A stretch of DNA of 64,000 nucleotides, taken from assembly GCA_031399025.1 (NCBI GenBank), contig JANNOJ010000015.1, positions 36,306-100,305 on the forward strand, read 5' to 3'. Source of the stretch: Erythrobacteraceae bacterium. Lineage in GTDB: Bacteria; Pseudomonadota; Alphaproteobacteria; Sphingomonadales; Sphingomonadaceae. Below, piece by piece: positions 1,378 to 59,504 of this stretch. Below the pieces are notes generated by a model. The model saw only the letters and a program-made list of their open reading frames with translations, did no database searches and was not told the DNA's origin. Position numbers and translations under genes: made by a program. How positions within the stretch are numbered: position 1 is the stretch's first letter; each line of letters starts with the position of its first letter.

Positions 1378-1459
1378 CGAAGCATGCCCGAATTACGGAC
1401 ATCATGATCGCATGTCGAGACAGTTGTGCGTGATGCGCTGATATGCGACGGCGTTGCCG

Positions 1460-2233: not shown

Positions 2234-2313
2234 CCGCCCCTTGAGACGGGTGTCTATCAGGCGATAATGCGGGTTTGCCCGGATTGTGCTGCGGACATTA
2301 CGATGGGCGGTCA

Positions 2314-38640: not shown

Positions 38641-38901
38641 GGGCGTTGGGGCGGCAGCGGAGCTTGAAGCCGGAGACATCGCAGTCATGCTGGCCAGCGC
38701 GGCAGCGGATGAGGCCGTCTTTGTCGGCAAGCGAGCGCGCGCCTCGCTGGGGGCCGATCGGCACGGCCTCGCGAATGGGCGCGGGGCGGCCGGGAATGCG
38801 CCAAACGGCGTATCCCCTTAGCTGCGCCGCGGGCTGATGGTGCCCCGGTCCGGTGTATGCCCGCCGCATGGACTGGCATTGTGGGGGTGACAAAGACGGG
38901 C

Positions 38902-40494: not shown

Positions 40495-40498
40495 GCCC

Positions 40499-40957: not shown

Positions 40958-40979
40958 GGCGCTGCGCCGGCGGCGCGCG

Positions 40980-41399
40980 CTAGCCTTCGGGCGACGTCGC
41001 GCCGGCGATCGCCGCCACCTCGGCCGCCGTCACCGGCTCGGGATAATCGTTGAACTCGGTGCGCACGTGGGTGAGCACCGCGGCGATCTGCTCGGGGGTC
41101 AGGATGTCGGTGAACCACGGCATGCCGGCGCGCCCCTTGGCCATGATCTCAATGATGTAGGCCTTGTCGGCCATGCGCGGGTTGTCGGCCAGCGCCGGGA
41201 TGCCCGTGCCTGCCCCCGCCCCGCCCATGGCATCGGCCATGTGGCACGATTGGCAGATCTGCTGATAGACCTGCCCTCCCTCGCTGGCGATCTGCACCGA
41301 GGCGGTGCCGCCCGGCCCGTCCTGCGCGCGCGGGGCGTGCGCGGGCACGGCCAGCGCGGATGCGCCCACGGCGAGCGTGGCGGCGAGACGCGCCCTCAT
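40980..41399 (-). CDS. monohaem class-I cytochrome c (partner of paralog 2)
   Basis: 139 aa. Signal MRARLAATLAVGASALAVPAHA. Haem site CQSCH. GRAGMPWF Met region. ATG overlaps the TGA of the upstream oxidase gene. Confidence 0.85.
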   Translation of the reverse strand: MRARLAATLAVGASALAVPAHAPRAQDGPGGTASVQIASEGGQVYQQICQSCHMADAMGGAGAGTGIPALADNPRMADKAYIIEIMAKGRAGMPWFTDILTPEQIAAVLTHVRTEFNDYPEPVTAAEVAAIAGATSPEG

Positions 41400-42988
41400 G
41401 CGGCGAGCGCGCGGGTGTGCAGCTGCTCGATGGCGTTGAGCGCCGAGAGCAGCGAGCCTTCCATCCAACCGCCGTAATAGGTGGCATGTTCGCCCGCGAG
41501 CGCGATGCGACCGTCCATGGTGACGAGGTTGGTGTAATGCGCCGCGCGGCTGTCCTCGGTCCAGCGCGCGGTGCAGCCCTGGATCCACGGCATGCGGCTC
41601 CAGGCGATCGAGGCGCCGCTGACGTATTCGCGGCGATATTCCTCGGGGTGGAAGACCGATCCCTGCTCCAGCGCCAGCTCGATCCGCTGCTCGGGCGTCA
41701 TCCCCGCCAGCTGGAACGCGCCCGCGCCGCTGGCGAAGGCGCCCAGCAAGACCGCCGGGCCATCCTGGAAATAGTTGAAATTGGGGTATGAGATGAGCGA
41801 GATCGCCTGGTCGGTGAAGCTGTGTCCGCCATAGATCGAGTAGTTCTTCTCCCAGAAGCGGCTCTTCATCTCGAGGCCGATCTTCACCATGCTGCTCATC
41901 GGCACCGCGCTGATCGCCGCCTTGGTGGCATCGCTCACCTGCACGTCGAGCTGGCTGAGGATCGTGGGCGGGATCGTGCACACGCACCAGTCGGCCTGCG
42001 CCTGGCCGGTCTCGCCGGTGACGGTGTCGGTCCAGCTGGCCGTGACCCCCCGCTCGCCCTGCGCCAGCCGCGTGACGCGGGTATTCATCCGCACCATCGG
42101 CTTGATTTCATTGAAGAAGCCCTGGGCGATCATGTCCATGCCGCCCTTGGGCTGGAACATGGTGGTCTGCATCACGTAGTTGAAATAGAAGTTCATCTGC
42201 GTCCAGACGTTGCTCGCCAGCACGTCGGTGAGACTGTTGACCGACGAGGCGCTGGGCGCGCCGACGAGACCGCCGCCGGGCGGGGTGTCGTAGCCGCGCT
42301 GGGCCGAGGTCTGGATCGAGCTGGTATAGGCCAGGTTCTCGTCGAGCAGGCCCCATTCGCGCATGGCGACGAGCAGCTTCTCCTTGTCCTCGGTGGTCAC
42401 TTGGCTGTCGAGCGCGCCGGCGTTGAGCGACTTGGAGAGCAGCTCGGAGACGTGGCCCTTGAAGTCCACCGCCAGCTCCTTGTAGCGCTGCGGCTTGCCG
42501 CCGAAGGCGTTGGTGCGGTGGACGAAGGTGTTGGTGTTGTTCTGGATGAACGGCTCCAGCTCAACTCCGAACGCCTTACAATAATGCAGCAAGGTGCGGT
42601 GGTGGTGCGGGATGCGCCAGGGCCCGGGGTTGAGGTAATTGCCGGGTGAGTAGGTGACCTGCTGGGTAGCCCCGCCCACCTCGACCACCCGGTCGCCCCC
42701 GCGCAGCGTGTAGCAACGGCCGCCGACGCGGTCCTGGTATTCGAGCAATTGCACGCCGTAGCCGGCCTTGGCCAATTCGTAAGCCGCCAGCATCCCGGCC
42801 AGACCCGCACCCAGCACCAGCACGCTGGCGCCGGGCCGCGCGCCGGTGAGCGCGGGCGGCCCGCTGAACTGCGATTCCGCCGCGTGGCCCAGCACGGTCA
42901 TCGCCTGGTACATCGCCAGGCCGCCGCCGATCGTGCCGATCATCGACAGCAGCTCGCGGCGGGTGGGCACGTAATCGGGGAGGCTCAT
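41396..42988 (-). CDS. flavin monoamine oxidase-family protein with twin-arginine signal (paralog 2)
   Basis: MSLPDYVPTRRELLSMIGTIGGGLAMYQAMTVLGHAA (TRRELL Tat motif). VLVLGAGLAGMLAAYEL..LLEYQDRVGGR. C-terminal RIALAGEHATYYGGWMEGSLLSA. Confidence 0.9.
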   Translation of the reverse strand: MSLPDYVPTRRELLSMIGTIGGGLAMYQAMTVLGHAAESQFSGPPALTGARPGASVLVLGAGLAGMLAAYELAKAGYGVQLLEYQDRVGGRCYTLRGGDRVVEVGGATQQVTYSPGNYLNPGPWRIPHHHRTLLHYCKAFGVELEPFIQNNTNTFVHRTNAFGGKPQRYKELAVDFKGHVSELLSKSLNAGALDSQVTTEDKEKLLVAMREWGLLDENLAYTSSIQTSAQRGYDTPPGGGLVGAPSASSVNSLTDVLASNVWTQMNFYFNYVMQTTMFQPKGGMDMIAQGFFNEIKPMVRMNTRVTRLAQGERGVTASWTDTVTGETGQAQADWCVCTIPPTILSQLDVQVSDATKAAISAVPMSSMVKIGLEMKSRFWEKNYSIYGGHSFTDQAISLISYPNFNYFQDGPAVLLGAFASGAGAFQLAGMTPEQRIELALEQGSVFHPEEYRREYVSGASIAWSRMPWIQGCTARWTEDSRAAHYTNLVTMDGRIALAGEHATYYGGWMEGSLLSALNAIEQLHTRALAA

Positions 42989-43035
42989 CGGGTTCGCCTG
43001 AGGGTGCGAGGTCTGGTGGAGTGGGCAGGCCGCAA

Positions 43036-43542
43036 TCAGGGCGCGGTGGCGGCGATCGCCTCGATCTCGACATACATCCCCGGGCGACCCAGCGCGGCGA
43101 TCTGGATGGTCGAGCGGGTCGGGCGGTTGGGCTGTTCGGGGGTGCCGAAGAAGGTGCGGAACACCTCGTTCATCGCGGCCGAGTCCATCCGCCCCTCGGT
43201 CTCGGGCGTGCCGACCAGGAACACGGTCATCTTGACCACGTCGCCCATATCCATCCCCATGCCTTCCAGCGTCGCCTTGATCTTGGTCAGCACCGACAGC
43301 GTCTGCTGGCGCGTGTCACCCAGATTTTCCGGCACGGCGGGATCGAGCGGGGAGGGCGTGGTGCCCGAGATGAAGACGATGCGGCTGTCTGCCGGCAGCG
43401 AGGCGGTGCCGGCGATGGTTGCGGTGGGGCTGTTGTAGGTCCGCTCGATCTGCGCGGCGGCTTCCTGCGCCAGGGCGCCGCCGCTCGGGAGGGCCAGCGC
43501 TACCGGCAGGGCGGCAAGGGCAAGGGCAAGGATGTGGCGCAT
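43036..43542 (-). CDS. RidA/YjgF/UK114 (Rid) family protein with signal peptide
   Basis: 168 aa. MRHILALALAALPVALALPSGGALAQ leader. Rid core ISGTTPSP...GDTRQQTLSVLTKIKATLEGMGMDMGDVVKMTVFL...PTRSTIQIAAL...VEIEAIAA. The Arg equivalent to the imine-deaminase Arg is present (PTRS). Confidence 0.8.
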   Translation of the reverse strand: MRHILALALAALPVALALPSGGALAQEAAAQIERTYNSPTATIAGTASLPADSRIVFISGTTPSPLDPAVPENLGDTRQQTLSVLTKIKATLEGMGMDMGDVVKMTVFLVGTPETEGRMDSAAMNEVFRTFFGTPEQPNRPTRSTIQIAALGRPGMYVEIEAIAATAP

Positions 43543-43618
43543 GCAAGGGGTTCCCGTCTCAGTCATTCGTGCAACGAAGGCGGGCGACCTCAAGGAAGGG
43601 CGCCCGCGGGCGATCATG

Positions 43619-46252
43619 TCAGAAGTCCACGGCGATGCGGGCGTAGTAATAGCCGCCGTTCGTGCCGTATGGACCGAAGGTGTACGGCGCGTTGATTACG
43701 CCCGAATTGTTGATGTAAGGCGAGCGGCCATTGAAGCCGACTGTCCCGGATGTGGGGTCGGCCGCATTATAATCTGCTACAAGTGGTGGGACTTCGGGTA
43801 TCTTGTCGAACAGGTTGTTTGCGCCCACTGTCACCGTGAAAAACTCGGTTAGGTCATAACTCAATTCCAGATCCACGATGGCCGTGGACTCCACCACTGC
43901 CTCGTAATAGCGTCCCTCGATAGGTGCTTGAGTGGTGGAATTCGAGTTCGGCTCCACCAATTGAGTTGTGTCGGAATACCAGTTCACGCGGGCATTCGCA
44001 CTGAAGGGACCGGACTGGAAAAAAGCGCCAAGGTTGACCTTGAAGTCCGGGCTGGCGCGTTCGACCGTGTCTTCGGCGGTGATGGTCCACAGCGTGCCGA
44101 GCGAACTGCTGTCAGTCACCCTGGTCTTGTTGTAGTTTGCACCCAGCGACAGATCCACTGTTCCGAAGGGCAGGTCGACCGGATAGCGGGCGGCCAGTTC
44201 AGCGCCGGTAGTTTCGGTGTCGATCCCGTTGGTGAAGGTCTGGATCGCCAAGGTGCCTGTCGCCAGCACGGTGGGGTCGAGTTGCTTGCCGCTGGCCTCG
44301 ATGGCGTCGAGCACCAGCTGATACGGGGTCAGGCCGTTGATCAGCGGAGTCAATACCTGGGTGGGGGGTGAGTTTGTACCGACATACCGTTGACCGGTGA
44401 TCGCGCCGGAAGACACGATCCGGTCGTTGATCTTGATGTAATAGCCATCAAGCGTCACCACCAGCCGGTCGATCGGGCGGATCACCGTACCCACTGAGAA
44501 GTTGAGCGATTCCTCCGGCCCAAGCGAGCCGAACCCGGCGCTAGCCGCACCGGATGAACTCGGCGCGAGTTGCAGCGTTGCCGAAGTGGGGCCGACATTG
44601 GTGGCCGAATAGCCCTGTTCCGCCAGGGTCGGGGCGCGGAAGCCGGTGCTGGCGGTGGCGCGCAGCGCGAACGCGTCGGAGAAATCATAGCGGGTGGTGA
44701 TCTTGCCGATCAGCGCGTCGCCGAAATCGCTATAGTCCTCGTACCGTCCGGCGAGGTCAACGGTCCAGCCTGCCAACGGATCGGAGATGAAGTTTACATA
44801 CACCGCCCTGGCCGTGCGATCGATCGTGCCTGCATCGGTGGCGGAATAGCCGGGGAAGGACTGGCCGCCCTCAACGTAAAGCGAAAGGTCGTCGCCCTGG
44901 AAGATCGTGTAGGTTTCGTCACGGAATTCGGCGCCGAAGGCGAATGTCAGCGGCTCGTTCAAGCCGATCTCGAACTCCTTGTTGACGTCGAGCGTGCCGA
45001 CAAACTGGTTGAACTGGAAGCCGCCATCGTAAAAGTCGGTCGGCGATTGGCCGGTATCGACATAGAGCGACGCGTTAACCGATTCGGTGGTGTAAACCTG
45101 CGCCACGTCTTCCGCATAGGTCCCGGACAGGTCCCAAAGCCACCCGCCCGCTTCACCCTCAATTCCGGTGGTGAGCGAGAATTCGTCCTGAAACACCTCG
45201 ATATGCGGCACCAGGCCGGTCTGCGCGGTGTTGGCAAAGCACTGGGTCGGGTCGTTGGTTTGCGCCACGTATCTATCTTGAGCAGCGTCATATCTGCGGC
45301 ACACGCGGGTCGGCACGCGGTAGCCCTGCAGCGCGTCACCGCTGCGGAATGAGACGTCCCCGAACGAGTAGACGTCGACCCCGCCGAAATCATAACCGAA
45401 GTTGAAGAAACCAACCGTCAACTGCGATGCGGGCTGACCGCCGTTGATGTTCGCGGTACCGCCATTGTCGGCCAGCTCCTGATAGATCGACGCGAACGCA
45501 GGAGCGACGGCGGCATTGGGCGTGCCGTCCACTCCTACCACTGAGATCTGCCCGTCGCCCTGCGTGGTCACATCATTGCGGCGATGTTGTAGGGCGAGAT
45601 CGAGGAAACCAGCATCGCCTACCTCGAGACCGAAATTCCCGCTGAGATTGTAGGTCCGCCCTTCACCGTCATAATACTCGCCAGCCGACCCGCGGAGCGC
45701 GGCGCCCGAGGTATCGCTCTTCAGGATGATGTTGATGACGCCGGCAATCGCATCCGATCCGTACACGGCGGCGGCGCCGTCCTGCAGGATCTCGATGCGC
45801 TCGATGATGTCGGGCGGGATGAGGTCGAGGCTGGGCGCGGCCGAGCCGCCGAAGGCGCCGTTGATGACCTGGAGGATGGCGTTGCCGTGGCGGCGCTTGC
45901 CGTTGACCAGCACCAGCGTGTGGTTGGGGCTGAGACCGCGCAGACGGGCAGACAGCGAGAAGCTCGCCATGTCGGTGCCCTGCGTCTGCGCCTGGAATGA
46001 GGGGACGAGCTGGGTCAGCGCCTGGTTGAGGTTGGGCTGGCCGACCCGGGAGAGCGCGTCTTCGGAGAGCAGCTGGATCGGCGCGGCGCTGTCGGCGGCG
46101 ATCTGGCCTGCAGCGCGGGTGCCGGTGACGATGATGACTTCCGCTTCAGCGACAGCGTCGGTGGTCGCCGTATCGTCCTGCGCGCGGGCGGTGGTGGAAA
46201 GGGCAGTCGAGGCAAGAAGTGCAAGTGCAATCGGTCGGGCAATACGCGACAT
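43619..46252 (-). CDS. TonB-dependent receptor
   Basis: 877 aa. Signal peptide, plug domain (VIIVTGTRA..., [29 protein letters not shown]), long beta-barrel, terminal aromatic residue (...ARIAVDF). Confidence 0.92.
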
Positions 46253-46540
46253 TAGGTGGACCCCCCCATTTGGTTTCCTCGCTCTCCCTTGCTGAGCCGC
46301 ACGGCGGTGCTTTGATTTGTCTCTGGTTCATCGCTGCCTGCCCCGGCAGATGCGATCTCGGACACACCGGCTTGATGGCTGCTATCCAACCGATCGGCCG
46401 CACAAAGCCCATACGCCGATGTGCGTAGGGCTACCTGGCGAGGGTGGATGATAGGCACGCCCTGAATTTATCGAGGCTTTTCTATCGTGCGGCGGGCGTG
46501 CCGCGCCGTAGCGGAAAGCCCAGCACAGGGGAGGCCCGAA

Positions 46541-47059
46541 ATGATTGCCAGAACGTTTCCGATTGCCGCGCTGCTCGCCTGCGCCGCCGCGCTGCCCGCC
46601 CCGGCGGCGGCCGAGGGCGAGGTCATCCGCATCCAGCGCAATCCGGGCGCCTTCATCCTCGAGGCGGCGCGGGTTAACGCAGGCGCGGACGTGATCTACG
46701 TCTCGGGCCAGCTGCCCTCGCCGATCGACCCGGCCATGCCGATGAGCGAGGTGACCAGCATCGAGCAGATGGGCGACACCCGGACGCAGACCATCAGCAC
46801 TTTAGCCAAGATCCGTGACATTCTGGCAACACAGGGCTTCACCATGGGCGACGTGGTGAAGTTGACGCTGTTCGTGATGGCCGATCCGGCCACCGGGGAA
46901 ATGGATTTCGCCGGGGTCAACCAAGGCTTCCGCCAGTTCTTCGGGACGGCGGACAACCCCAATACGGTGGCGCGCTCGACCTTCGAGGTCGCCGGGCTGG
47001 TCGGTCCGCATTACCTGATCGAGATCGAGGCCATCGCCGCCCGCGCCCCGGCGCCCTGA
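46541..47059 (+). CDS. RidA/YjgF/UK114 (Rid) family protein with signal peptide (second copy)
   Basis: 172 aa. MIARTFPIAALLACAAALPAPAAA leader. VSGQLPSP...GDTRTQTISTLAKIRDILATQGFTMGDVVKLTLFV...VARSTFEVAGL...IEIEAIAA. GGGGAGG RBS. Divergent from the receptor gene. Confidence 0.8.
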   Translation: MIARTFPIAALLACAAALPAPAAAEGEVIRIQRNPGAFILEAARVNAGADVIYVSGQLPSPIDPAMPMSEVTSIEQMGDTRTQTISTLAKIRDILATQGFTMGDVVKLTLFVMADPATGEMDFAGVNQGFRQFFGTADNPNTVARSTFEVAGLVGPHYLIEIEAIAARAPAP

Positions 47060-48077: not shown

Positions 48078-49001
48078 CTATTGCTCGATGACCCGGACGG
48101 CAATGGCTGCCGCCGCAGAGCGGGTTTCCACGCCCAGCTTCTCGAAAACGTGCTCGAGATGCTTCTGCACGGTCCGCGGGCTGATCTGCAGCACATCGCT
48201 GATGTCGCTGCTCGACTTGCCGTAACTGACCCACAACAGTACCTCCGCTTCGCGCCGGGTGAGGCCGAGCATGGCCGCCAGCCGTTCTATATCCTTGCGC
48301 GGGTTCAACTCGTTGAGCCGGATCAGCACTTCGTTCTCGCGGTAACGCGCCACCAGCACTAGCTCCACCATTCCATCGGGCGAGGCCCGGTCCACCCGCA
48401 CGCTGGCGCCGGTCGCGCCTGACGACAGCAGCCGCTCCAGCGGCGCGAGCAGCGCCGGCGGCAGGGCTTTGGCGCGCGACCAGCCGGGCACCAGCCGCGA
48501 CACTGCCGCTTCCGCACGCGGGGTGCACCATAGCAGGCTGCCGCGGGCATCGGTGGCCAGCATCAGCCGGCCGGTGGCATCGAGGCTGGCGGCGCTGGCG
48601 TGGGCCGCGCGGCCTTGCGCCATGTGCACCCGCACCCGGGCGAGCAATTCGGTGAGGTTCACCGGCTTTTTGACATAGTCCACCCCGCCGACCTCGAATG
48701 CCTCCACCACATGTTCGCTTTCAGTCAGCCCGGTCATGAAGATCACCGGGATCCCGGTAAGGCGGGGATTGCGCTTGATCCTCACGGTGGTCTCGAACCC
48801 GTCGATGCCCGGCATCACCGCATCGACGATGATCAGATCGGGCAGGAATCGGTCGAGCAGCTCGAGCGCGTTTTCGCCCGAGGTCGCAATCAGCACGGTG
48901 ATGTCCGCGCTTTCCAGCGTGTCGGTGATGACATGCAGCGATGCCGGCTCGTCATCGATCACCAGCACGGTGTCGGAGTGGCCGGGAATGGATGGTATCA
49001 T
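48078..49001 (-). CDS. response regulator: receiver + central domain + LuxR-type HTH
   Basis: 307 aa. VLVIDDEP...LIIVDAVMPGIDG...VIFMTG...YVKKP (intact receiver). C-terminal LTRREAEVLLWVSYGKSSSDISDVLQISPRTVQKHLEHVFEKLGV. ATG overlaps the kinase TGA. Confidence 0.85.
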   Translation of the reverse strand: MIPSIPGHSDTVLVIDDEPASLHVITDTLESADITVLIATSGENALELLDRFLPDLIIVDAVMPGIDGFETTVRIKRNPRLTGIPVIFMTGLTESEHVVEAFEVGGVDYVKKPVNLTELLARVRVHMAQGRAAHASAASLDATGRLMLATDARGSLLWCTPRAEAAVSRLVPGWSRAKALPPALLAPLERLLSSGATGASVRVDRASPDGMVELVLVARYRENEVLIRLNELNPRKDIERLAAMLGLTRREAEVLLWVSYGKSSSDISDVLQISPRTVQKHLEHVFEKLGVETRSAAAAIAVRVIEQ

Positions 49002-50821
49002 GCGCTCTCCAGCAGCTTGGCCATGCCGGCGAGATCGAACTCGTCCAGCGCGGCATAGAGCGCGCTCACCAGCCGGCCGTGGTTTGGCGCCGCGGTGCCC
49101 AGCATCGCGATCTCGGCCTCGATACCGCGCACATGGCCGATCTGGATGCGCTCGAGCAGCCGCTCGACATGCGCCCTGGCATTTGCCGGCAGCCCGCCGG
49201 GCGGCGGATCGACCGCCTCGCCAGCGCCGCCGGTTGCTTCCCATTTCCAAGAAAAATGCAGCAGCGCGGCGATCACTTCGGCCATCTCGTTCAGCCGATA
49301 TGGCTTGACGAAGAAGTGATCGTGCATCGGCCGGTCATATTGCGGGCGCTGGAATTCCTGCGAATTGGCCGAGGCCATGACGATGACCAGATCCGGTGCC
49401 GGCTCCGACCTCCCGGCGGGGCGCGCACGGGCGCGCAGGTGACTGGCGACATCCCAGCCGGACATTCCAGGCAGGCTGATATCGAGCACGGCGAGGTCGA
49501 AGTTGCGCGTGTCGCACAGCGCCACCGCGCTTTCGCCATCGGCCAGCGACACCACCTCCAGCCCGCAACCCGCCAGGAAGCTCTCCAGAAAGCCGCGCTG
49601 GTCGGCATCGTCGTCCACCAGCAGAACGGATCGGCGCGGGCCCTCATAGCCGGTGATTCGCCGGTGGATGGTTCCCCGCGCTTGCGCATTGGTCGGTTCC
49701 GCCAGCATCAGGGTGACGCGGAAGCAGGCGCCGCGGCCAGGCTCGCTCTCCAGTTCCAGATTGCCGCCGAGGATCTCGATTATTGCCTTGGTGATCGGCA
49801 GGCCCAGGCCGACGCCGGGGCGCACGTGGCGATCGGTCTTGTCCACCTGCTCGTAAGGATCGAAGATGCGTTGCTGGTTCTCCGGCGCGATGCCGGGGCC
49901 GGTGTCGGTGATCTCGATAGTGCCGATCTGGCCGCGATAGGCGAGGCGCATGGTCACCGTGCCGGCATCACTGAACTTGATCGCATTGCCGATGAGGTTG
50001 ATCAGCGCCTGGCGCAGCCGGTTCTGATCGGTGCGGACGAACTCGGGCGTCCAGGTGGTGGCCTCGTAGACGAAGTCCAGTCCCTTAGCCTCCGCGGCGG
50101 GGCGCATCATCAGCACGATCTGATCGATAAAATCGGGCAGCCGGACGATCTCGCTGCGCACCCGCAACATGCCGTGCTCCAGCCGCGAGATGTCGAGCAG
50201 GCTTTCGATGAGGCTGGTCATGTGTTCGGCGCAGCGGCGGATGATGCGCGCTGCCTCCTGTGGCCGCACGTCGGTTTCCTGTTCCACCAGCTGGGCATAG
50301 CCATAGATGGCGTTGAGCGGCGAGCGGATCTCGTGGCTGATATTCTCCAGATAACGGGTCTTGGCGAGGTTAGCGGCGTCGGCGTTCTCCATGCCGCGCC
50401 GGGCGGTCTCCATCCTCGCCGTGAGTCCGGCCACTTGCATGATGCGCAGGCGCAGCACGCGATAGCTGAGCACCGCCGCGCTGAAGCTGACCACGATCCC
50501 GATGACGATGATCTGGTGCAGCGACGTGCCATCCCTCGGGAGCGCGATCTCCAGCCCCAGCATCAAGGCATCGAGCAGCAGCGCGATCAGGATCAGGCCG
50601 ATGGCGAGCGGGGCCAAGACCTCGGGATTATCGAACTGGCGAAAAGCACCCTGGAAGCGGGGCTCTTCCGACCCCGCTGGCGGCGATACGGGCAGGTCGG
50701 CGGCGCTCGTCAACTCCGCCGGTCCGCGCGCGTGCGCACGGGAGCGGGTCCTGCCCCGGCGGCTCTCTCCTGCACTCTGTTTGACCCCGTCATCTGCCAA
50801 CCCGCGGGCGGTTTGCCGCAC
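48998..50821 (-). CDS. hybrid sensor histidine kinase/response regulator
   Basis: Two TM segments with a very short loop. H-box ISHEIRSPLNAI. ATPase boxes LINLIGNAIKF, DTGPGI, GVGLGL. Receiver SVLLVDDD...LAVLDISLPGMSG...FFVKP. C-terminal ~90 aa with GHVRG (possible HPt-like). Start (GTG 50821) uncertain. Confidence 0.85.
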   Translation of the reverse strand: MRQTARGLADDGVKQSAGESRRGRTRSRAHARGPAELTSAADLPVSPPAGSEEPRFQGAFRQFDNPEVLAPLAIGLILIALLLDALMLGLEIALPRDGTSLHQIIVIGIVVSFSAAVLSYRVLRLRIMQVAGLTARMETARRGMENADAANLAKTRYLENISHEIRSPLNAIYGYAQLVEQETDVRPQEAARIIRRCAEHMTSLIESLLDISRLEHGMLRVRSEIVRLPDFIDQIVLMMRPAAEAKGLDFVYEATTWTPEFVRTDQNRLRQALINLIGNAIKFSDAGTVTMRLAYRGQIGTIEITDTGPGIAPENQQRIFDPYEQVDKTDRHVRPGVGLGLPITKAIIEILGGNLELESEPGRGACFRVTLMLAEPTNAQARGTIHRRITGYEGPRRSVLLVDDDADQRGFLESFLAGCGLEVVSLADGESAVALCDTRNFDLAVLDISLPGMSGWDVASHLRARARPAGRSEPAPDLVIVMASANSQEFQRPQYDRPMHDHFFVKPYRLNEMAEVIAALLHFSWKWEATGGAGEAVDPPPGGLPANARAHVERLLERIQIGHVRGIEAEIAMLGTAAPNHGRLVSALYAALDEFDLAGMAKLLESA

Positions 50822-51049
50822 TCGTTACGCTGGCGACTATGGTGCAACGCAAGATCGGCGCGCGCAAGGGCGTCGCTGCTTGACACGCGCAGCGCAGCGA
50901 GTCGTGCGCCAAGGTGACGCAAAACTGCCACAGCCGGCGCGGCGGCACGCCGGTGACCCGATCAGCTTGGGCGGCTCACCAGACCGGCCGCCTCGCCGAG
51001 GGCTGCCGCCCTCATGCCGAACCGGGCAACGCCACGCAAAACGCCGCCA

Positions 51050-51478
51050 TCAGCCGCTCGGTTCCGCCGCGTCGAAATCAATCCGCCGCAGCGCGCGCGG
51101 TTCATCGGGCAGAGCGCGGCTTCCGGCAGGCGCGCCGTTGGCCTGCAGGATGAAGGCGATCACGCGGGCATTGTCCTGCGCCGACAAGGTGCCGGGCGCA
51201 TGTTGCGGCATGGCCCGGGCAATATAGTCGAACAGCTCGCCCACCGGCCGCCCGCCCCAATTGGCGACGAATTTGCCGACCAGGCCAGGTGTCTCCACCG
51301 TGCCTTCCAGCTGCCCGCCGTGACACATCGCGCATTGCCGCGCATAAAGCTGGCCGCCTTCCGCGGCCTGGAGTGCGGTATAAACGCCGTCGGCGCTGCC
51401 GCGGCCCGCCGCCGGCCCGCCGCCGACCGCCACCAGCGCCACCGCCCCCGCCAGGCTGGTCAGAAGCGGTTGCCTCAT
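51050..51478 (-). CDS. monohaem cytochrome c (partner of the DAAO-like flavoprotein)
   Basis: 142 aa. Signal MRQPLLTSLAGAVALVAVGG. Haem site CAMCH. ARAMPQH Met region. ATG overlaps the TGA of the upstream flavoprotein gene. Confidence 0.8.
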   Translation of the reverse strand: MRQPLLTSLAGAVALVAVGGGPAAGRGSADGVYTALQAAEGGQLYARQCAMCHGGQLEGTVETPGLVGKFVANWGGRPVGELFDYIARAMPQHAPGTLSAQDNARVIAFILQANGAPAGSRALPDEPRALRRIDFDAAEPSG

Positions 51479-52749
51479 GCCGCGTCCGCTTGCATGGTGA
51501 GCGGGGCGAACAGCGGGGCCAGCGCCGCCAGCGCCTCCTCGATCGGCGCGCGTGCGGGCAGTTCGGTGCTGTCGCCCACGCCCAGCATATCACCCAGATC
51601 GGGATTGTTGTTCATCAGGACGATGCCGTCCGCCTTGGACAGCAGCGACATGTTGCGCGAGCGCAATGCGTAATTCGCCTCCGGTTGCGGCACCAGCCAG
51701 CCGGTCTGGCCGCGCACCGGGATCACCGAGCGGTCCTGCCACAGGTCGCGCGCCGAATAGCCGGTGGCGTGGATCACCACCGGCTCGGGCAGTTCGCCCA
51801 ACTCCCCGGGCGAGTGAAAATTGCGCATCTCGAACTTGCCCCCGCGGCTGAAGAACTCGTCCAGCAGCAGGTTTCCGTAAGCGGGAAAGTTGAAATACAT
51901 CTGCGAGGTGCGCGTGGCGAACGGCGTGGCGAACGGGTTTTCCTCGGGCATCAGGGGTACCGCTTGCGGCACGATGTCGCGGATGCGCGAATCCAGATGA
52001 GCGAATTCGCTGTTCTGGTGCGGTTGCCCGGTGGTGTCGTAGCTGTCGCTGATCGCCGGGTCGGGTTCCCAGACGCGGCGGGTGATCGGCTCGTGCGACA
52101 CCGCATAGCTGTCGCCGAAAGCCACCGGATCGCCCGGCAGACCCAGCATCGTGCGGAACATCTTCCACGAGAACCGCGCCATCTGCTCCCACTGATAGGG
52201 AAACTGCGCGCCCGCGGGGCCGGCCAGGGCAATCCGCGAGCCGGGGGTGTAGGAGCCGCTCGCCCGCATCGAGCGGGTGCGGAAGAACTGCTCGCGGGCG
52301 TAGATCGTCACCTCCAGCCCGGCGCGCTGAGCGACGATTGCCGACGTGAGCCCGATGATCCCGCAGCCGACCACGGCGATCCGCTCGGGCAGCACCGACA
52401 GCGCCTTGCCCACCGCCACTTCGGCCGATCCCCAGGACAGCGACCAGCCGCTGCCGCCATGGCCGTAATTGTGGATCACCAGCCGGTCGCCGACCGTCTC
52501 GGTACCCAGGTTCGGCCCGGCCGCGCGCAACGGGCGGATGCAGCACTTGAGATCGATGAGCTGGTCGAGCGAGACCCGCATCGGCACCAGCTGCGGGCGG
52601 CTGCCGGCGGGCGCGGCCTGCATTGGTGAGGATTGGGCGCGAAGCGGCGCGGGCAAGGCCAGCGCGCCCGCCGCGCCGAGCACGCCCTTGATCACCGCGC
52701 GCCGCTCGCTGTGGATTTCGGCGGTTCGATGGTGTGGCAAGTGGCTCAA
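51475..52749 (-). CDS. Tat-signal FAD-dependent oxidoreductase, D-amino-acid-oxidase-like, apparently circularly permuted
   Basis: 424 aa. SERRAVIKGVLGAAGALALPAPLRA Tat leader. VIHNYGHGGSGWSLSWG (normally the DAAO C-terminus) at residues ~91-107, followed by the dinucleotide fold IAVVGCGIIGLTSA at ~124-137. PVRGQ later. TTG start. Confidence 0.8.
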   Translation of the reverse strand: MSHLPHHRTAEIHSERRAVIKGVLGAAGALALPAPLRAQSSPMQAAPAGSRPQLVPMRVSLDQLIDLKCCIRPLRAAGPNLGTETVGDRLVIHNYGHGGSGWSLSWGSAEVAVGKALSVLPERIAVVGCGIIGLTSAIVAQRAGLEVTIYAREQFFRTRSMRASGSYTPGSRIALAGPAGAQFPYQWEQMARFSWKMFRTMLGLPGDPVAFGDSYAVSHEPITRRVWEPDPAISDSYDTTGQPHQNSEFAHLDSRIRDIVPQAVPLMPEENPFATPFATRTSQMYFNFPAYGNLLLDEFFSRGGKFEMRNFHSPGELGELPEPVVIHATGYSARDLWQDRSVIPVRGQTGWLVPQPEANYALRSRNMSLLSKADGIVLMNNNPDLGDMLGVGDSTELPARAPIEEALAALAPLFAPLTMQADAA

Positions 52750-52980
52750 GACTGTTGTGCCCCGTTCTGCAAAACGTGGCTAGGCAGCGTTCGATCCGTT
52801 CGGAAATGAGGGAAAAGGCGTATTGCCGGCAGCCGGCACGCCGCCCGTCCCAGTTCGCTCACGCTCGTCGCTCCGCTCGCCGCTGCCGACCGGCCTGGCG
52901 TCGCGCTGCATCGTTAATTCGGAACGCTCGGCGGCTAAGGCCGTTCGTAATCCAAGAGGCCGAGCTGGAGGAGTGTGAGG

Positions 52981-53247
52981 ATGGAATGGATTATCGCGAT
53001 AATCGTGGGGGGCATCATCGGCTGGATCGCCAGCATGATTATGGGCCGGGATGCCTCGATGGGCATCTTCTGGAACATCGTCGTCGGCATCGTGGGCGCG
53101 CTGCTCGGCGGGTGGCTGGGCACGATGCTGTTCGGCATCGATTCCACGCTCTCGGACTTCAACCTGCCCGGGCTGCTGATGTCGCTCTTGGGTGCGGTGC
53201 TCTTGCTGGGCATCCTGAACCTGATTCAGCGCGGCCGCGTTCGCTGA
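52981..53247 (+). CDS. GlsB/YeaQ/YmgE-family stress-response membrane protein
   Basis: 88 aa. MEWIIAIIVGGIIGWIASMIMG...[29 protein letters not shown]. Confidence 0.85.
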   Translation: MEWIIAIIVGGIIGWIASMIMGRDASMGIFWNIVVGIVGALLGGWLGTMLFGIDSTLSDFNLPGLLMSLLGAVLLLGILNLIQRGRVR

Positions 53248-53514: not shown

Positions 53515-54732
53515 ATGAACTACGAAGCGAAGATGGATGTGATCGCCGCTCCCGCGCAGGCACGGGCTCACCCTTCGGCCGTGCTCGGTATCGAAGCGGT
53601 CGATCCCGAGCAGCGCGCGCGCCGTCGCCAGCGGCTGATCATCGCCGCGGTCGTCGCCGTGGTCCTGCTGGCGGTCGCCGGCTATATGCTGTCGCAGGGA
53701 AGCGGTGAGGCAGCCTTCGCGCCCGACGAGAACGCGACCGCGCCCGCGGTTACGGTGATCTCGCCGGGGCGCGCGACGGTCGCCGGGCTCATCAACGCCA
53801 CCGGCACCCTGGCCGCCCGTCGCGAGATGCCCGTGGGCGTGGTCGGCGAGGGCGGGCGGATCGTTTCCGTGCTCGTCGAGGCGGGCGATTGGGTCGGTGC
53901 CGGGGAGGTGCTGGCGGTGATCGATCGCTCGGTGCAGAACCAGGAGGTCGAAGGCCAGGCGGCGCAGATCGAGATCGCCCAGGCCGATCTCGATCTCGCC
54001 CAGGCCAATCTCGACCGCGCGCTGCAACTGGTCGACCGTGGGTTCATCTCCACCGCCGATGTCGACAGCCTCACCGCCACCCGCGACGCCGCGCGCAGCA
54101 GCGTGCGGCTCGCCCAGGCGCAATATCGCGAGCTGATCGCGCGCAATGACCGGCTCAACATCATCGCCCCCGCCGCGGGCCTGGTGCTCGAACGCAACGT
54201 CGAGCCCGGCCAGGTGGTCGGTTCGGGCTCGGGCGTCTTGTTCTCGATCGCCCGCGGCGGCGAGATGGAATTGCTCGCCCGCGTGAGCGAGGACGATCTC
54301 GCCCAGCTCGACGTGGGTTCCACCGCCCGCATCACGCCGGTGGGCACCGACAAGCAGTTCACCGGGCAGATCTGGCAGTTGTCGCCAATCATCAACGAGG
54401 CCGACCGCCAGGGCACCGCGCGCATCGCGCTCGCTTATGCCCCCGAACTGCGCCCCGGCGGGTTCGCCTCGGCCGAGATCAACAGCGGCTCGGTGGTCGC
54501 CCCCCGGCTGCCCGAGAGCGCCATCATGTCCGACGATGACGGCAGCTACGTCTACACGGTCGATCGCGAGAACAAGGTCGTCCGCCGCCGGGTGGAGCTT
54601 GGCATGGTGAGCGACGAGGGCATCGCCATCATCTCGGGCCTCGATGGCACCGAGCCGATCGTGGCGCGCGCCGGCGGCTTCCTGACCGAGGGCGAGACCG
54701 TGCGCCCGGTTCGCGAGGGGCGCGGCAATTGA
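53515..54732 (+). CDS. RND efflux periplasmic adaptor (membrane fusion protein)
   Basis: 405 aa. TM anchor, barrel-sandwich/hairpin pattern (VSVLVEAGDWVGAGEVLAVID...QIEIAQADLDLAQANLDRA...IIAPAAGLVLERNVEPGQVV). Confidence 0.85.
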   Translation: MNYEAKMDVIAAPAQARAHPSAVLGIEAVDPEQRARRRQRLIIAAVVAVVLLAVAGYMLSQGSGEAAFAPDENATAPAVTVISPGRATVAGLINATGTLAARREMPVGVVGEGGRIVSVLVEAGDWVGAGEVLAVIDRSVQNQEVEGQAAQIEIAQADLDLAQANLDRALQLVDRGFISTADVDSLTATRDAARSSVRLAQAQYRELIARNDRLNIIAPAAGLVLERNVEPGQVVGSGSGVLFSIARGGEMELLARVSEDDLAQLDVGSTARITPVGTDKQFTGQIWQLSPIINEADRQGTARIALAYAPELRPGGFASAEINSGSVVAPRLPESAIMSDDDGSYVYTVDRENKVVRRRVELGMVSDEGIAIISGLDGTEPIVARAGGFLTEGETVRPVREGRGN

Positions 54733-54745
54733 CCGCGATCCGGCC

Positions 54746-57700
54746 ATGAGCTTCCGCAACATCTCCGCCTGGGCGATCCGCAACCCGATCGTCCCCATAC
54801 TCGCCTTCATCGGCCTGGTCATGGCCGGGATGATGAGCTTTGCCGAGATGGAGGTGCAGAACAATCCGGACATCGAATTTCCGGTGGTCAACGTCAGCAT
54901 TTCGCAGCCCGGCGCCGCGCCGACCGAGGTGGAGAACCAGATCAGCCAGCGGGTGGAGGCGGCGGTTCAGTCGCTGGACGGGGTCGAGACGATCCAGACG
55001 ACCGCATCCGAGGGCAGCTCGCTCACCAGCATCGAGTTTGAACTGGGCACCGACATCGCCGAGGCGGTGAACGAGGTGAAAAATCAGGTCGACCAGATCC
55101 GCGGCGAGCTGCCCGAGGGTATTCTCGAGCCGAGCATAACCAAGCAGCAGACCAGCGCCGATCCCATCGTCTTCTTCGGCGTCACCGCCGACGACATGAC
55201 CATCGAGCAGCTGTCGTGGTTTATCGACGACACCATCACCAAGCGCCTGCTGTCGGTGGATGGCCTGGCCGAAGTCGGGCGCAATGGCGGCGTCGACCGC
55301 GAGATCCTGGTGATCCTCGATCCGGCCAAGATGCAGGCGCTCGGCGTCACCGCGTCGCAGGTCAACACCGCGCTGCGCCAGCTGAACGTCAATGCCGCCG
55401 GCGGGCAGGCCGAGATCGCCGGTTCGCGCCAGTCGGTTCGCGTGCTCGGCAACGCCGCCAACGCCTACGAATTGTCGCAGAGCCAGGTCGACATTGGCAA
55501 CGGGCGCTCGGTCAAGCTGGCCGACCTGGGCAGCGTGAGCGACAGCTACGGCGAACTTCGCTCGATCGCCAAGATCGACGGCAAGCAGGTGGTCACCTTC
55601 TCGATCAGCCGCGCGCGGGGCGAATCCGACGTGGCGGTGTACGATGCCGCGGTCGAGGTGCTCGAGCAAATCGAAGAAGAGAACCCGGGCATCACCTTCA
55701 CCCGGCTGTTCACCGAGGTGGATTACACCAAGGCGCAGTACGAAAGCAGCATGGCGGCGATGATCGAGGGCGCCATCCTGGCGGTCATCGTCGTGTTCCT
55801 GTTCCTGCGCGACTGGCGCGCGACGGTCATCGCCGCGCTCGCGATCCCGCTCTCGGCGATCCCCACCTTCTGGTTCATGGACATGCTGGGTTTCACGCTC
55901 AACACGCTCTCGCTGTTGGCGTTGGGGCTGGTGGCCGGCGTGCTGGTGGACGATGCGATCGTGGACATCTAGACCATCGTGCGCCACATGCGCTTGGGCA
56001 AATCGGCCTATCAGGCGACCCTCGCCGCCGCCGACGAGATCGGCCTCGCCGTGGTCGCCACCACCTTCTCGATCGTGGCGGTGTTCCTGCCGGTGGGCCT
56101 GATGCCCGGCGTCTCGGGCCAGTTCTTCAAGAATTTCGGCCTCACGGTCGTCGTCTCGGTGCTGATGTCGCTCGGGGTGGCGCGGCTCATCACGCCGATG
56201 ATCGCCGCCTATTTCCTCAAGGCCAAGGGTACTCAGGCCCACGGCGAGGGCGCGATCATGGACTGGTACATGCGCGTGTTGCGCTGGTCGCTCGATGCGC
56301 GCGCCTTCCGCGAAATGCGCGCCCGCCTGGGGTATGTTCCCACCAGCCCCTGGTTCCATCTCGCGGCGCTCGCCGTCGGGCTGGCCGTGGTCGCCGGGAT
56401 CAGCGCCCTGCTAGGCTCCGGCGCCAACATTTTTGCCGGGGCGGGGCCGGGCTGGATCCTCCTGATGCTCCTCGCCGGATACCTGGTGGGCGGGCTGGTC
56501 AACTTCATCTTCGGTCTGCTGCTGGGCCGCTTCATCGGCTACGAGACCAGCCTCTTCACCCGGCGTGCGCGATATCTGGGCGCTCGCTTCCTCGACCATC
56601 GCGTCTGGATGATGCTGACCGGCGTCGTCGCGCTGGGCCTGACGATCGTGCTGTTCGTCAACCTGCCGCAGCAGTTCTTCCCCGACGAGGACAGCGACTT
56701 CTCGCGCATCACCGTCGAGATGGTCCCGGGCACCACGCTCGAGCAGACCGAGGCGGTGATCGACCAAATCGCCGCGCGGATGAGAGAGGAGCAGGAGGTC
56801 GCGCTTGCGCTGGGCGTCGCTCGCGAAGGCTCGGGCGTGATCCGCCTCGTGCTCAAATCCGACCGGGAACGCCCCAGCACCGAGTTCGAAGAGGAGCTCA
56901 CCCCGGTCCTGCAGACCTTCCCCGACGCGCGGGTCAATTTCGAGAACCAGCAGGGCGGCGGTGGTGGCACGGGCCGGGCGATCTCGATCATGTTGGCGGG
57001 TTCCGACCCGACGCAGCTCAACCGCACCGCCCAGATCCTGGTCGAACAGATGCAAAGCGTGCGCGGCGCGATCGCCCCGCGCATCGACTACGACCTGCAG
57101 CGGCCCGAACTGATCATCCGACCACGCGAAGATCTCGCGGCGCAACTGGGCGTGACCACCCAATCGCTGAGCCAGGCGATCCGCATCGCCACGTTGGGCG
57201 ACATCGACGAGAACGCGGCCAAGTTCTCCCTTTCCGACCGGCAGATTCCCATCCGCGTGCGCCTCGCCGAGAATGAGCGGCGCAATGTGGAGACGATCCG
57301 CAACCTGCCCGTCACCACCGCCGATGGGGGGTCGGTGCCGCTCGACCGGGTGGCCGAGATCTCCTTCGGCCAAGGCCCGACCGAGATCGAGCGTTACAAC
57401 CAATCGCGGCGGGTCTTCATCGGCGTCGACCTGGCGCCGGGTGTCGCGCGCGGCGACGTGCTCAACGCCATCAATGCGCTGCCGATCATGGGCGACCTGC
57501 CCGCGGGCGTCAGCAACGAGCCGGTGGGCGCCGACGAATGGCAGGGCGAGCTCGTCGGCAGCTTCATCATCGCGCTGGTGACCGGCATCCTGCTGGTGTT
57601 CTCGGTGCTGGTGCTGCTCTACCGGCGGTTCGTCTCGCCGCTGGTCAACATGGCTTCGCTCGCGCTCGCGCCGCTGGGCGGCTTGCTCGCGCTGTATGTC

Positions 57701-58168
57701 GCCGGCTACCTCAAGACCGGCCAGCCCGAGCCGGTCTCGATGCCCGTGTTCATCGGCCTGCTGATGCTGCTGGGGATCGTCGGCAAGAACTCGATCCTGC
57801 TGATCGACTTCGCGCTCGAGGAGATGGAGACCGGCAAGCGCAAGCGCGACGCCATCCTCGAAGCGGGCCACAAGCGCGCTCAGCCGATCGTCATGACGAC
57901 GATCGCCATGATCGCCGGCATGATACCCACCGCGCTCTCGCTCGGCGGCGATTCGGCCTGGCGCGCGCCGATGGGCACGGTCGTGATCGGTGGCCTGATG
58001 CTGTCGACCGTGCTGACGCTGCTGATCGTGCCCGCGGGCTTCAGCCTGGCCGACGGGATGGAGAAGAAGCTGGGCCCCTGGCTGCGCGACCGGTTCCTGA
58101 CCTACCGTCCGGGCGACGAGCGGAAGGGGGGGCATCGCCCCGCGCCGGAGCTGCAGCCCGCTGAGTGA
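54746..58168 (+). pseudogene. RND (AcrB/HAE1-type) efflux permease interrupted by one in-frame TAG at 55970-55972
   Basis: ORFs 54746-55972 and 55979-58168 are in the same frame. Together they form a colinear ~1140-aa RND permease. The stop sits in the conserved TM4-proximal motif: LVDDAIVDI(TAG)[15 protein letters not shown]. Confidence 0.8.
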
Positions 58169-58199
58169 GGCGCCCTGCTCTCCCCGCACGCCGGCTCTT

Positions 58200-59504
58200 A
58201 TGGCGCGCGACCTGCCCCGCCTGATCCCTCCCGCTAGCTCGGGCGGTGAGCCGTTCACCGGTGATCGCGCGCGCCGCATGCGCCTGGCCGCCACCGCCCT
58301 GCTGGTGGCGATGGCCGGCCTGTTCACGCTCGCTCTGGCGATGGAGGAGGAGCACCCGGCCTGGGGCTTCGTCCTCGCCTTCGCCGAGGCGGCGATGGTG
58401 GGCGGTCTGGCCGATTGGTTCGCGGTGACCGCACTGTTCCGCCATCCGCTCGGCATTCCCATTCCGCATACCGCGATCATCCCCACCAAGAAGGACCGCA
58501 TCGCCGACATGATGGGGGACTTCCTGCAGCGCCATTTCCTGACGCCGGCGGTGGTCTCGCGGCGGTTGCGCGACACCAATCTGGCGCGCACAGCGGGCGA
58601 TTACCTGGCGCAGAGCAGCGGAAGCGGCGAGGGTCGCATCCGGGCCGGCGCGGCCAATCTGCTGGTCGAGCTGCTCCAGTCGCTCGACCCGGAACGGCTG
58701 GGTGTCCGGGTCAAGGCGGGCCTTGGCCAGCTGGTGGCGCGCATCGAGCTGTCGCCGCTGCTCGGCCAGATGCTCTCCGCCGCGATCGCCGATGGCCGCC
58801 ACCGCCCGCTGGTCGATGGCTTCATCCGCTGGGCGGGCCTGGCGCTCGAGGACAACGAGGAGCTAGTCCAGCGCATGGTCCAGCGCCGGGCCAACGCGCT
58901 CCTGCGCTGGACCGGGCTCGACCAGCGGCTGTCGAGCTCGGTGCTCGACGGGCTCTACCGCCTGCTGGCCGAGATCCTCGTCGAGCCCGCGCATCCGGTG
59001 CGGCTCAAGGTCGACGAGGGGCTGGCCAAGCTGGCGCACGACCTGCAGCACGACCCGGCCATGCGCGCGAAGGTCGAGCGGATGAAGAACGACCTGCTAG
59101 CCAACCCGGCGCTCGGCAGCTGGTGGATGGGGGTCTGGGAACGGCTTCGGCACGGGCTGATCGAGCTGGCGCGCGGCGGAGCGCAGGGGGGAGCCGCGGG
59201 CGGCGCGCTGGGTGGCCAGCTGCACGCCAGCCTGGCCGAGCTGGGCGAGAGCCTGCGCCGCGATCCGGTGCTCCAGGCGCAGGTCAACCGCTTCGCCCGG
59301 CGCACGATCGTGGGCGTGGCCAGCCGCTACGGCGAGCAGATCGTCCGCCTGGTCTCCGACACGGTCAAGCGCTGGGACGCGACCACCATCACCGACCGGA
59401 TGGAGCACGCGGTCGGCCGCGACCTGCAGTTCATCCGCATCAACGGCACGCTGGTGGGCGGGCTCGTCGGGGTGACGATCCACCTGGTGACGCTGTTGGT
59501 CTGA
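58200..59504 (+). CDS. DUF445-family membrane protein
   Basis: 434 aa. GGLADWFAVTALFRHPLGIPIPHTAIIPTKKDRIADMMGDFLQRHFL and C-terminal DLQFIRINGTLVGGLVG are typical of DUF445 (YjiN-like). Confidence 0.72.
   Translation: MARDLPRLIPPASSGGEPFTGDRARRMRLAATALLVAMAGLFTLALAMEEEHPAWGFVLAFAEAAMVGGLADWFAVTALFRHPLGIPIPHTAIIPTKKDRIADMMGDFLQRHFLTPAVVSRRLRDTNLARTAGDYLAQSSGSGEGRIRAGAANLLVELLQSLDPERLGVRVKAGLGQLVARIELSPLLGQMLSAAIADGRHRPLVDGFIRWAGLALEDNEELVQRMVQRRANALLRWTGLDQRLSSSVLDGLYRLLAEILVEPAHPVRLKVDEGLAKLAHDLQHDPAMRAKVERMKNDLLANPALGSWWMGVWERLRHGLIELARGGAQGGAAGGALGGQLHASLAELGESLRRDPVLQAQVNRFARRTIVGVASRYGEQIVRLVSDTVKRWDATTITDRMEHAVGRDLQFIRINGTLVGGLVGVTIHLVTLLV

Follow-up and report, generated by a model that had tools for sequence, protein, structure and literature searches.

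We analysed a window of 64,000 nucleotides (the whole stretch of DNA considered here; positions below are counted from its first letter) on contig JANNOJ010000015.1 of an Erythrobacteraceae bacterium, and describe two overlapping genes on its reverse strand, one for a circularly permuted flavoprotein related to D-amino-acid oxidase (DAAO) and the other for a cytochrome c. The flavoprotein gene (51475..52749, (-)) begins with TTG, ends with a TGA at 51475-51477 and encodes 424 amino acids. The cytochrome gene (51050..51478, (-)) encodes a monohaem class I cytochrome c of 142 amino acids with a hydrophobic N-terminal leader and the haem motif CAMCH at 51320-51334. Both open reading frames (ORFs) have the high third-position GC that is typical of real genes (0.88 for the flavoprotein, in a window of ~67% GC). 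A database protein (P0001) is 100% identical to the flavoprotein and was called as 406 amino acids.

From its N-terminus onward the flavoprotein is laid out in four parts. Residues 1-38 (52636..52749, (-)) make up a putative twin-arginine translocation (Tat)-type leader, recognised by its motifs: SERRAVIKG with its arginine pair (RR) encoded at 52699-52704, the hydrophobic GVLGAAGALALPAP, and a candidate cleavage site between LRA and Q. The mature N-terminus, residues 39-63 (52561..52635, (-)), is a linker that is modelled with low confidence and is poorly conserved and gap-rich in alignments. Residues 64-119 (52393..52560, (-)) are a transposed DAAO C-terminal module, delimited by its alignment to DAAO 283-372, by the residue map and by the per-residue confidence (predicted local distance difference test, pLDDT) of a structure model. 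This module consists of an IRPLR strand, two further strands, the HNYGHGGSG loop, which binds flavin, and a helix at 105-117. Within it, VIHNYGHGGSGWSLSWGSA (residues 91-109, coordinates 52423-52479, (-)) aligns to DAAO 304-330 and satisfies, as a regular expression, the DAO signature, which we take to be PROSITE PS00677 in the form [LIVM](2)-H-[NHA]-Y-G-x-[GSA](2)-x-G-x(5)-G-x-A. The body of the protein, residues 120-424 (51478..52392, (-)), is colinear with DAAO from residue 1 to ~268 according to the Pfam DAO profile, a hidden Markov model (HMM) alignment and Foldseek. It opens with the Rossmann beta-alpha-beta motif G128-x-G130-x-x-G133 (52351-52368), which is not N-terminal in this protein, also holds PVRGQ at 344-348 and the substrate-domain strands, and closes with a terminal helix at 400-423, so that the chain stops where DAAO residue ~268 would fall. 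The junction that joins the native termini is ~5 residues (SVLPE) before the Rossmann strand. Two insertions set the body apart from human DAAO (hDAAO), one of ~19 residues at 226-244 (WEPDPAISDSYDTTGQPHQ; ~52018-52074) and one at 384-390 (DLGDMLG; ~51580-51600); both are modelled at pLDDT 83-92, below the rest of the fold. The RR leader, motif order and cytochrome reported in a preliminary description of this DNA were all found in the sequence at the positions given there, and two of its spacings needed correction: ~30 residues (39-68) intervene between the leader and CCIRPLR, which had been placed side by side, and the distance to IAVVG, put at ~15 residues, is ~6 residues after the post-signature helix.

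The case for circular permutation comes from several independent alignments. Pfam DAO (PF01266) matches the flavoprotein at 5.7e-18 in two stretches, the best of which aligns residues 123-378 to profile positions 1-257 of 353. In phmmer searches against all PDB sequences, query residues 69-116 align to DAAO 325-372 of 7ct4 (domain i-E, the independent E-value, 1.4e-05) and residues 70-114 to 315-359 of 9vpf (4.9e-06), and the same N-terminal piece also aligns to 283-330 of 6rkf. The later segments 122-155 and 252-356 align to DAAO 7-40 and 106-209 (1c0i). Because the N-terminal piece is significant against DAAO C-termini by itself, it is not a chance motif. When the sequence is un-permuted (residues 119-424 followed by 46-118), Pfam DAO gives one match that spans profile positions 1-350 of 353 at 69.8 bits, compared with 46.8 bits and positions 1-257 for the body alone. 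We also built a family HMM from 53 diverse members and searched it against hDAAO (a sequence identical to 2du8_A). On the single hDAAO sequence it finds two separate domains, the better scoring 98.6 bits; on tandemly doubled hDAAO it finds one domain that spans the junction, 269-336 and then 1-263, at 160.4 bits; and on an explicit permutant (271-336 followed by 1-270) it finds one end-to-end domain at 161.3 bits. The doubled and permuted alignments therefore place the cut near hDAAO 268-270, in the loop that follows the helix ahead of the GxRPxR strand.

The predicted structure agrees with this arrangement. AlphaFold2 with a diverse alignment gives a model with mean pLDDT 90.7 and a predicted TM score (pTM) of 0.86 (a shallower alignment gives pLDDT 78). 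Residues 61-120 are modelled at pLDDT ~98 as the strand-strand-strand-helix expected for a DAAO C-terminal module. Confidence is 52-59 at residues 11-50 and rises up to 92 at residues 51-60, so that low values are limited to the leader and residues 39-50. With Foldseek against the PDB, ranks 1-33 are all DAAO or D-aspartate oxidase (DDO, also DASPO), at E ~1e-12 and a target-normalised TM of ~0.6; since the Foldseek alignment is sequential, it covers only the colinear ~80% of the model. In a profile search of the PDB, DAAO and DASPO score 6e-50 to 2e-35, and no other flavoprotein does better than 9e-10, most of these matches being to the Rossmann motif. None of the NCBIfam models comes near its cutoff, the best being of DadA type (28.9 bits against a cutoff of 383, Rossmann region only). 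The flavoprotein is thus a true relative of DAAO and DDO, not of ThiO, SoxB or DadA type, and its permuted motif order makes it a topological variant of the DAAO/DDO family and not a canonical member. No solved structure in the PDB belongs to the permuted family.

A search of 5.8 billion proteins returned close homologs at 64-100% identity, mainly from Sphingomonadales and all labelled generically, and an exhaustive search of 50%-identity representatives gave 2739 matches with E<=0.001, of which 972 reach <=1e-10 and 137 reach <=1e-30. Among the matches listed, these representatives are colinear with the query, the N-terminal piece included, and in every case with both motifs recognisable the signature precedes GxGxxG by ~30-35 residues (47 at most). 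Our genome survey took the 80 best loci (numbered with the prefix L below) from one-genome-per-species contigs and found the signature in 78; the permuted order was counted by position, since GxGxxG-like strings also occur inside signal peptides. All 78 proteins have a single copy of the signature with GxGxxG 35-38 residues later, and all end 263-309 residues past GxGxxG, which therefore leaves no room for a canonical C-terminal module. The alphaproteobacterial loci come from Sphingomonadales, Acetobacteraceae (Komagataeibacter, Acetobacter, Gluconobacter), Caulobacterales, Rhizomicrobium, Bradyrhizobium and Reyranella, and the others from Betaproteobacteria, Gammaproteobacteria (Xanthomonas, Dyella, Rhodanobacter), Acidobacteriota and Verrucomicrobiota. 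Duplication intermediates, with signature copies at both the N- and the C-terminus, were found neither among 150 representatives nor among the 78 loci. The family carries a natural circular permutation in which the former C-terminal segment, ~55 residues long, is now the first folded element and the chain ends in the helix that formerly preceded it. The preliminary description had argued for such a permutation from motif order and had proposed a doubled-DAAO alignment, a predicted structure and a search for homologs of the same order as checks. The single domain across the doubled-DAAO junction, the un-permuted sequence, the confident model with its DAAO and DASPO neighbours and the abundant same-order homologs all bear it out, and we regard a permuted DAAO-family architecture as almost certain. 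Our literature searches, which covered few subscription journals, found no description of a permuted, Tat-exported or cytochrome-coupled DAAO, so we conclude provisionally that the permuted family is widespread and undescribed in the searchable literature.

The leader is a property of the family as well. Its R16 is conserved in at least 90% of the 53 diverse homologs, and RR followed by a hydrophobic stretch is present at 72 of the 78 loci; given the permuted order in 78/78, both are therefore family traits. Translation has to begin at the TTG at 52749 for the RR motif to be included; gene callers choose a GTG at 52695 and lose it, as in P0001. Conservation of the leader in homologs favours the longer, TTG-start form, and automated annotation probably hides the export signal. 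A lipobox cysteine is present at 45 of the 78 loci, where the window protein has LRA-Q; in most relatives (L006, L008, L009, L011-L013, L015-L026 and others) a lipobox such as LAGC or LQAC follows the RR and hydrophobic region, and these proteins are therefore predicted to be Tat-dependent lipoproteins. Going by its motif, the leader of the window protein is probably cut between LRA and Q. A periplasmic location of the flavoprotein is, in our judgement, likely. Permutation and Tat leader co-occur across the family, and it had been suggested that the permutation was selected to accommodate the leader. The permutation is not needed for export, because L-amino-acid-oxidase (LAAO)-like proteins encoded nearby carry leaders directly before an N-terminal Rossmann fold; selection of this kind is neither supported nor excluded by our data.

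The 142-residue cytochrome matches Pfam Cytochrome_CBB3 (4.2e-10) and Cytochrom_C (2.9e-07), its PDB relatives are c-type cytochrome domains, and a conserved RAMP holds the candidate methionine ligand. Read directly from the sequence, the stop codon of the flavoprotein and the start codon of the cytochrome share an ATGA at 51475-51478 (-), an arrangement that points to translational coupling; the overlap, the CAMCH and the hydrophobic leader are as the preliminary description had them. The same or nearly the same gene junction is found at L001, L004, L005, L006 and L007. Orthologs of the cytochrome directly follow the flavoprotein gene in Sphingobium B11D3D (L001), Altererythrobacter (L003), a Sphingomonadales metagenome-assembled genome (L004), Komagataeibacter (L005), Rhizomicrobium (L006) and Acetobacter (L007), where they overlap the flavoprotein gene or start within a few bases of it and conserve both CxxCH and RAMP; at L009 and L048 a different cytochrome c occupies the same position. 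Across all 80 loci, a scan of stop-to-stop frames, which is robust to over-extended ORFs, finds an adjacent same-strand CxxCH frame in seven, and all seven belong to the loci with the greatest similarity to the window protein. Thus, of the expectation that homologs always carry both a Tat leader and an adjacent cytochrome, the leader holds (72/78) and the cytochrome does not (7/80). It follows that the permutation occurs independently of cytochrome coupling and that the cytochrome, confined to the loci nearest the window protein, was acquired by a subclade on top of an older, permuted and exported enzyme.

We next consider the active site. In hDAAO, R283 is the arginine that binds the alpha-carboxylate of the substrate, Tyr228 contacts the substrate carboxylate and Tyr224 lies in the lid loop. 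The Rossmann glycines G7, G9 and G12 of hDAAO map to G128, G130 and G133 and R283 maps to R72, all invariant in the 53 sequences, and G313 maps to G99 (at least 90% conserved). Other residues of the transposed module, P73, R75, H93, Y95-G98 and G101, are likewise invariant in the 53 aligned homologs. S368 takes the place of Tyr228, at a position where most members of the wider family have tyrosine, and the loop with the Tyr224 lid is missing, so that specificity may depart from that of classical DAAO. On this residue map the chemistry is probably DAAO-like, and specificity is not readable from it. We considered a specificity for acidic D-amino acids through R363 and rejected it as unsupported, since the match of R363 to Arg216 of DDO hinges on a one-residue alignment shift.

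The flavoprotein-cytochrome pair lies in a region with other genes for amino-acid oxidation. Directly downstream on the same strand are genes that Pfam identifies as a hybrid histidine kinase (48998-50821, (-)) and a LuxR-type response regulator (~48078-48998, (-)), the likely ATG of the regulator, at 48998, abutting the stop of the kinase. This pair also stands beside the DAO and cytochrome genes at L001, L003 and L004, and its recurrence suggests a dedicated sensor for the locus. Further away are two LAAO-like genes. The first (38857-40494, (+); Pfam Amino_oxidase 1.1e-55) matches the Rhodococcus opacus LAAO 2jae at E 1.5e-92, has a Tat-like leader with KR in place of RR (SKRDLL), and is followed by a cytochrome c gene (40454 or 40499 to 40957, (+); Pfam cytochrome 1e-12). 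The second (41396-42988, (-)), assigned by Pfam and its leader, encodes another Tat LAAO-like flavoprotein, and its TGA overlaps, again as ATGA, the ATG of a third cytochrome c (MRARLAATLAVGASALAVPAHA...CQSCH; ~40980-41399, (-)). This third cytochrome is absent from first-start ORF lists because its frame stays open upstream into the LAAO gene, and once it is included, the 14 kb do contain three flavoprotein-cytochrome pairs, as had been counted earlier. The cytochromes at 51050 and 40454, the only pair compared directly, share little beyond the haem motif. Genes for two exported RidA proteins (43036-43617, (-), and 46487-47059, (+); Pfam Ribonuc_L-PSP plus a leader in each) flank a TonB-dependent receptor gene assigned by Pfam (43619-46252, (-)). 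The stretch 38857-47059 is a homolog of the lao-cccA-ridA cluster, duplicated and convergent, with the TonB receptor between the RidA paralogs.

The whole arrangement is repeated in Sphingobium and partly at L004, L013, L048 and L054; LAAO-like, RidA and TonB-receptor genes were seen in the window and at L001, L004, L013 and L048. A co-oriented TonB receptor gene stands directly upstream of the permuted gene at L010, L013, L040 and L051 (~1050-3950), and the genomes with this arrangement and no cytochrome include Gluconobacter wancherniae and Sphingobium limneticum (L051). Clustering of the neighbours at the surveyed loci yields no universal partner gene: TonB receptors, RidA, two-component systems and LAAO/cytochrome pairs occur only in subsets. 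A scan for promoters and terminators did not exceed chance expectation: it turned up a single terminator-like hairpin (50927-50943, (-)) where 1.5 would be expected. On the other side of the flavoprotein gene and divergent from it are a gene for a small Transgly_assoc/GlsB-like membrane protein (52975-53247, (+)) and genes for resistance-nodulation-division (RND)-type efflux (53515-59504, (+); a membrane fusion protein at 53515-54732, then large transporter ORFs); both kinds of neighbour are also present on a short identical contig (L002).

Based on these observations, we propose that the locus encodes a periplasmic, permuted DAAO-family enzyme that feeds a cognate cytochrome c, which as a whole is the explanation that we find best and consider reasonably probable. 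The specific activity, D-amino-acid:cytochrome c oxidoreductase, we rate at an even chance or slightly better; here we infer substrate and acceptor from homology and gene context, as we also infer the export route and the role of RidA. What the sequence data do show is the permuted topology and its conservation throughout the family, the motif of the leader and the coupling of the two genes. In this scheme the flavoprotein would fold with its flavin adenine dinucleotide (FAD) in the cytoplasm and be exported by the Tat system through its RR leader, and in most relatives it would be anchored to lipid through the lipobox cysteine. In the periplasm it would convert D-alpha-amino acids to imino acids, with R72 gripping the alpha-carboxylate and a hydride passing to FAD. 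The reduced flavin would, in the subclade only, be reoxidised in two one-electron transfers by the co-translated monohaem cytochrome c, which would hand the electrons to the respiratory chain instead of to O2. Hydrolysis of the imino acid would either be spontaneous or be carried out by the exported RidA proteins encoded at the locus. With the two LAAO-type/cytochrome c pairs and the TonB receptor, the enzyme would form a periplasmic module for the deamination of amino acids.

Three other explanations have to be weighed against this proposal. The partial, colinear Pfam DAO match raises the question of whether there is a permutation at all, or whether the HNYGHGG block is a chance match, a partial duplication or an artefact of assembly or frameshift. 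We found no evidence that supports such a reading and regard it as extremely improbable: taken by itself, the block finds DAAO C-termini among all PDB sequences at E ~1e-5 to 1e-6, doubled DAAO yields one domain across the junction, the signature occurs once per protein in chains too short after GxGxxG for a second module (78/78 loci), and ~137 clusters at 50% identity, spread over many phyla, repeat the same order. An enzyme that is permuted and periplasmic but an oxidase, using O2 and making H2O2, is a more serious candidate, with the cytochrome serving some other role such as general carrier or peroxide handling. The closest characterised relatives, DAAO and DDO, are oxidases, most members of the permuted family have a Tat leader and no adjacent cytochrome, and Tat-only enzymes of the amine-oxidase superfamily are mostly fast with O2 (PMC12224317). 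We nevertheless think it unlikely for the window protein. An adjacent cytochrome is the stronger predictor of dehydrogenase function (PMC12224317); the cytochrome gene overlaps that of the flavoprotein, and an ortholog is kept there in Sphingomonadales, Acetobacteraceae and Rhizomicrobium; and each of the three window flavoproteins has its own cytochrome, the two that were compared being little alike beyond the haem motif, which fits dedicated partners.

It is also possible that the permuted DAAO fold acts on a non-standard substrate, such as glycine, an N-substituted or acidic D-amino acid, a D-2-hydroxy acid or an amine derived from peptidoglycan or opines. The exchange of Tyr228 for Ser368 and the loss of the Tyr224 lid are in keeping with this, as are R363 and K372, which are invariant in the near subclade only. 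R363 falls on Arg216 of D-aspartate oxidase if the phmmer alignment is extended without gaps and is one residue off in the HMM alignment, and the association with TonB receptors hints at a nutrient scarcer or bulkier than free amino acids. Against it, the alpha-carboxylate arginine R72 is invariant and the HGG-loop glycine conserved, no enzymes other than D-amino-acid and D-aspartate oxidases are among the nearest relatives in sequence and fold, and the rest of the locus encodes LAAO homologs and RidA imine deaminases. We judge it doubtful, if a little less so than the oxidase. Returning to the D-amino-acid:cytochrome c oxidoreductase, several points weigh against that proposal too. About 70 of the 80 related loci have no adjacent cytochrome, so the fold needs none, and those members may use O2. 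The leader is assigned by motif alone, and its RR requires the TTG start, which gene callers skip. The placement of the transposed piece on DAAO draws on sequence profiles and model confidence. The changes at Tyr228 and Tyr224, as read from the alignment, mean that specificity may differ from that of classical DAAO, and the sources that we searched contain no enzymology for any member of the permuted family.

DAAO is among the most studied flavoenzymes, with a long record in mechanism, biosensors, cephalosporin processing and D-serine neurobiology. The natural permutant demonstrates that its fold tolerates termini beside the active-site arginine strand, and nature has thereby provided a tested site for fusions, anchors and sensors. 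Since colinear domain models annotate the permuted family only in part, its members are hidden under generic labels such as 'FAD-dependent oxidoreductase' in hundreds of genomes, among them those of Xanthomonas, Acetobacteraceae, Caulobacterales and Acidobacteriota. If the coupling to cytochrome is functional, cytochrome-dependent dehydrogenases disguised as oxidases reach beyond the amine-oxidase superfamily, and the principle known from NicA2 and its cytochrome CycN would extend to a second, unrelated flavoprotein superfamily. D-amino acids, for example from peptidoglycan turnover or from other microbes, would then be direct periplasmic donors of respiratory electrons, and the LAAO-type/cytochrome c pairs and exported RidA proteins would complete a periplasmic module for amino-acid deamination. 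Such periplasmic respiration of D-amino acids would be a route outside current schemes of bacterial D-amino-acid catabolism. What is new is the topology, as a variant of the DAAO fold, together with the cellular location and, probably, in the subclade the electron acceptor. To the most general form of this proposal, that an ancient permutation defines a widespread and unrecognised clade of Tat-exported, often lipid-anchored DAAO-fold enzymes with one subclade of D-amino-acid:cytochrome c oxidoreductases, we give not quite an even chance.

Among known systems, DAAO and DDO (2du8, 1c0i, 7ct4, 6rkf, 9vpf) are the best matches to the flavoprotein in sequence, profile and structure, and share with it GxGxxG, HNYGHGGxG, the carboxylate arginine and PVRGQ. 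Unlike them, the window protein has a permuted chain, cut near hDAAO 268-270, in which ~5 residues link the native termini. DAAO and DDO are cytosolic or peroxisomal, whereas this protein has a Tat leader and many of its relatives a lipoprotein leader. It also lacks the Tyr224 lid, has serine for Tyr228 in its subclade, carries the ~19-residue insertion and is coupled to a cytochrome c gene. DadA resembles the proposed function, as a bacterial FAD enzyme that oxidises D-amino acids without O2 and feeds the respiratory chain, but it has the normal chain order, belongs to another DAO subfamily and is not a close relative. It is membrane-associated on the cytoplasmic side and passes its electrons to quinone. 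The closest parallel in logic is NicA2/Pnao with CycN (PMC12224317, PMC9396064), in which a Tat-exported, amine-oxidising FAD enzyme is encoded beside a Sec-exported monohaem cytochrome c that serves as its acceptor. In the amine-oxidase superfamily the combination of a Tat leader and an adjacent Sec cytochrome c marks cytochrome-using dehydrogenases, and enzymes with the Tat leader only are mostly oxidases (PMC12224317). The same marks are seen here, a Tat motif on the flavoprotein and an adjacent, co-oriented cytochrome c with its own leader. NicA2 and Pnao have the unpermuted monoamine oxidase/LAAO fold of PF01593 and were studied with amines such as nicotine and pseudooxynicotine, whereas the window flavoprotein has the DAAO fold within PF01266 and, in the Pfam scan, no match to Amino_oxidase (PF01593). 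Finally, Gluconacetobacter diazotrophicus has a lao-cccA-ridA cluster that encodes a Tat LAAO, a cytochrome c, whose role there is hypothesised only, and RidA (PMC5053998). That cluster has no DAAO-type member and was read out through the conversion of tryptophan to indole-3-pyruvate for auxin synthesis (PMC5053998), whereas in the window the permuted DAAO/cytochrome pair is accompanied by two LAAO/cytochrome pairs and two RidA genes.

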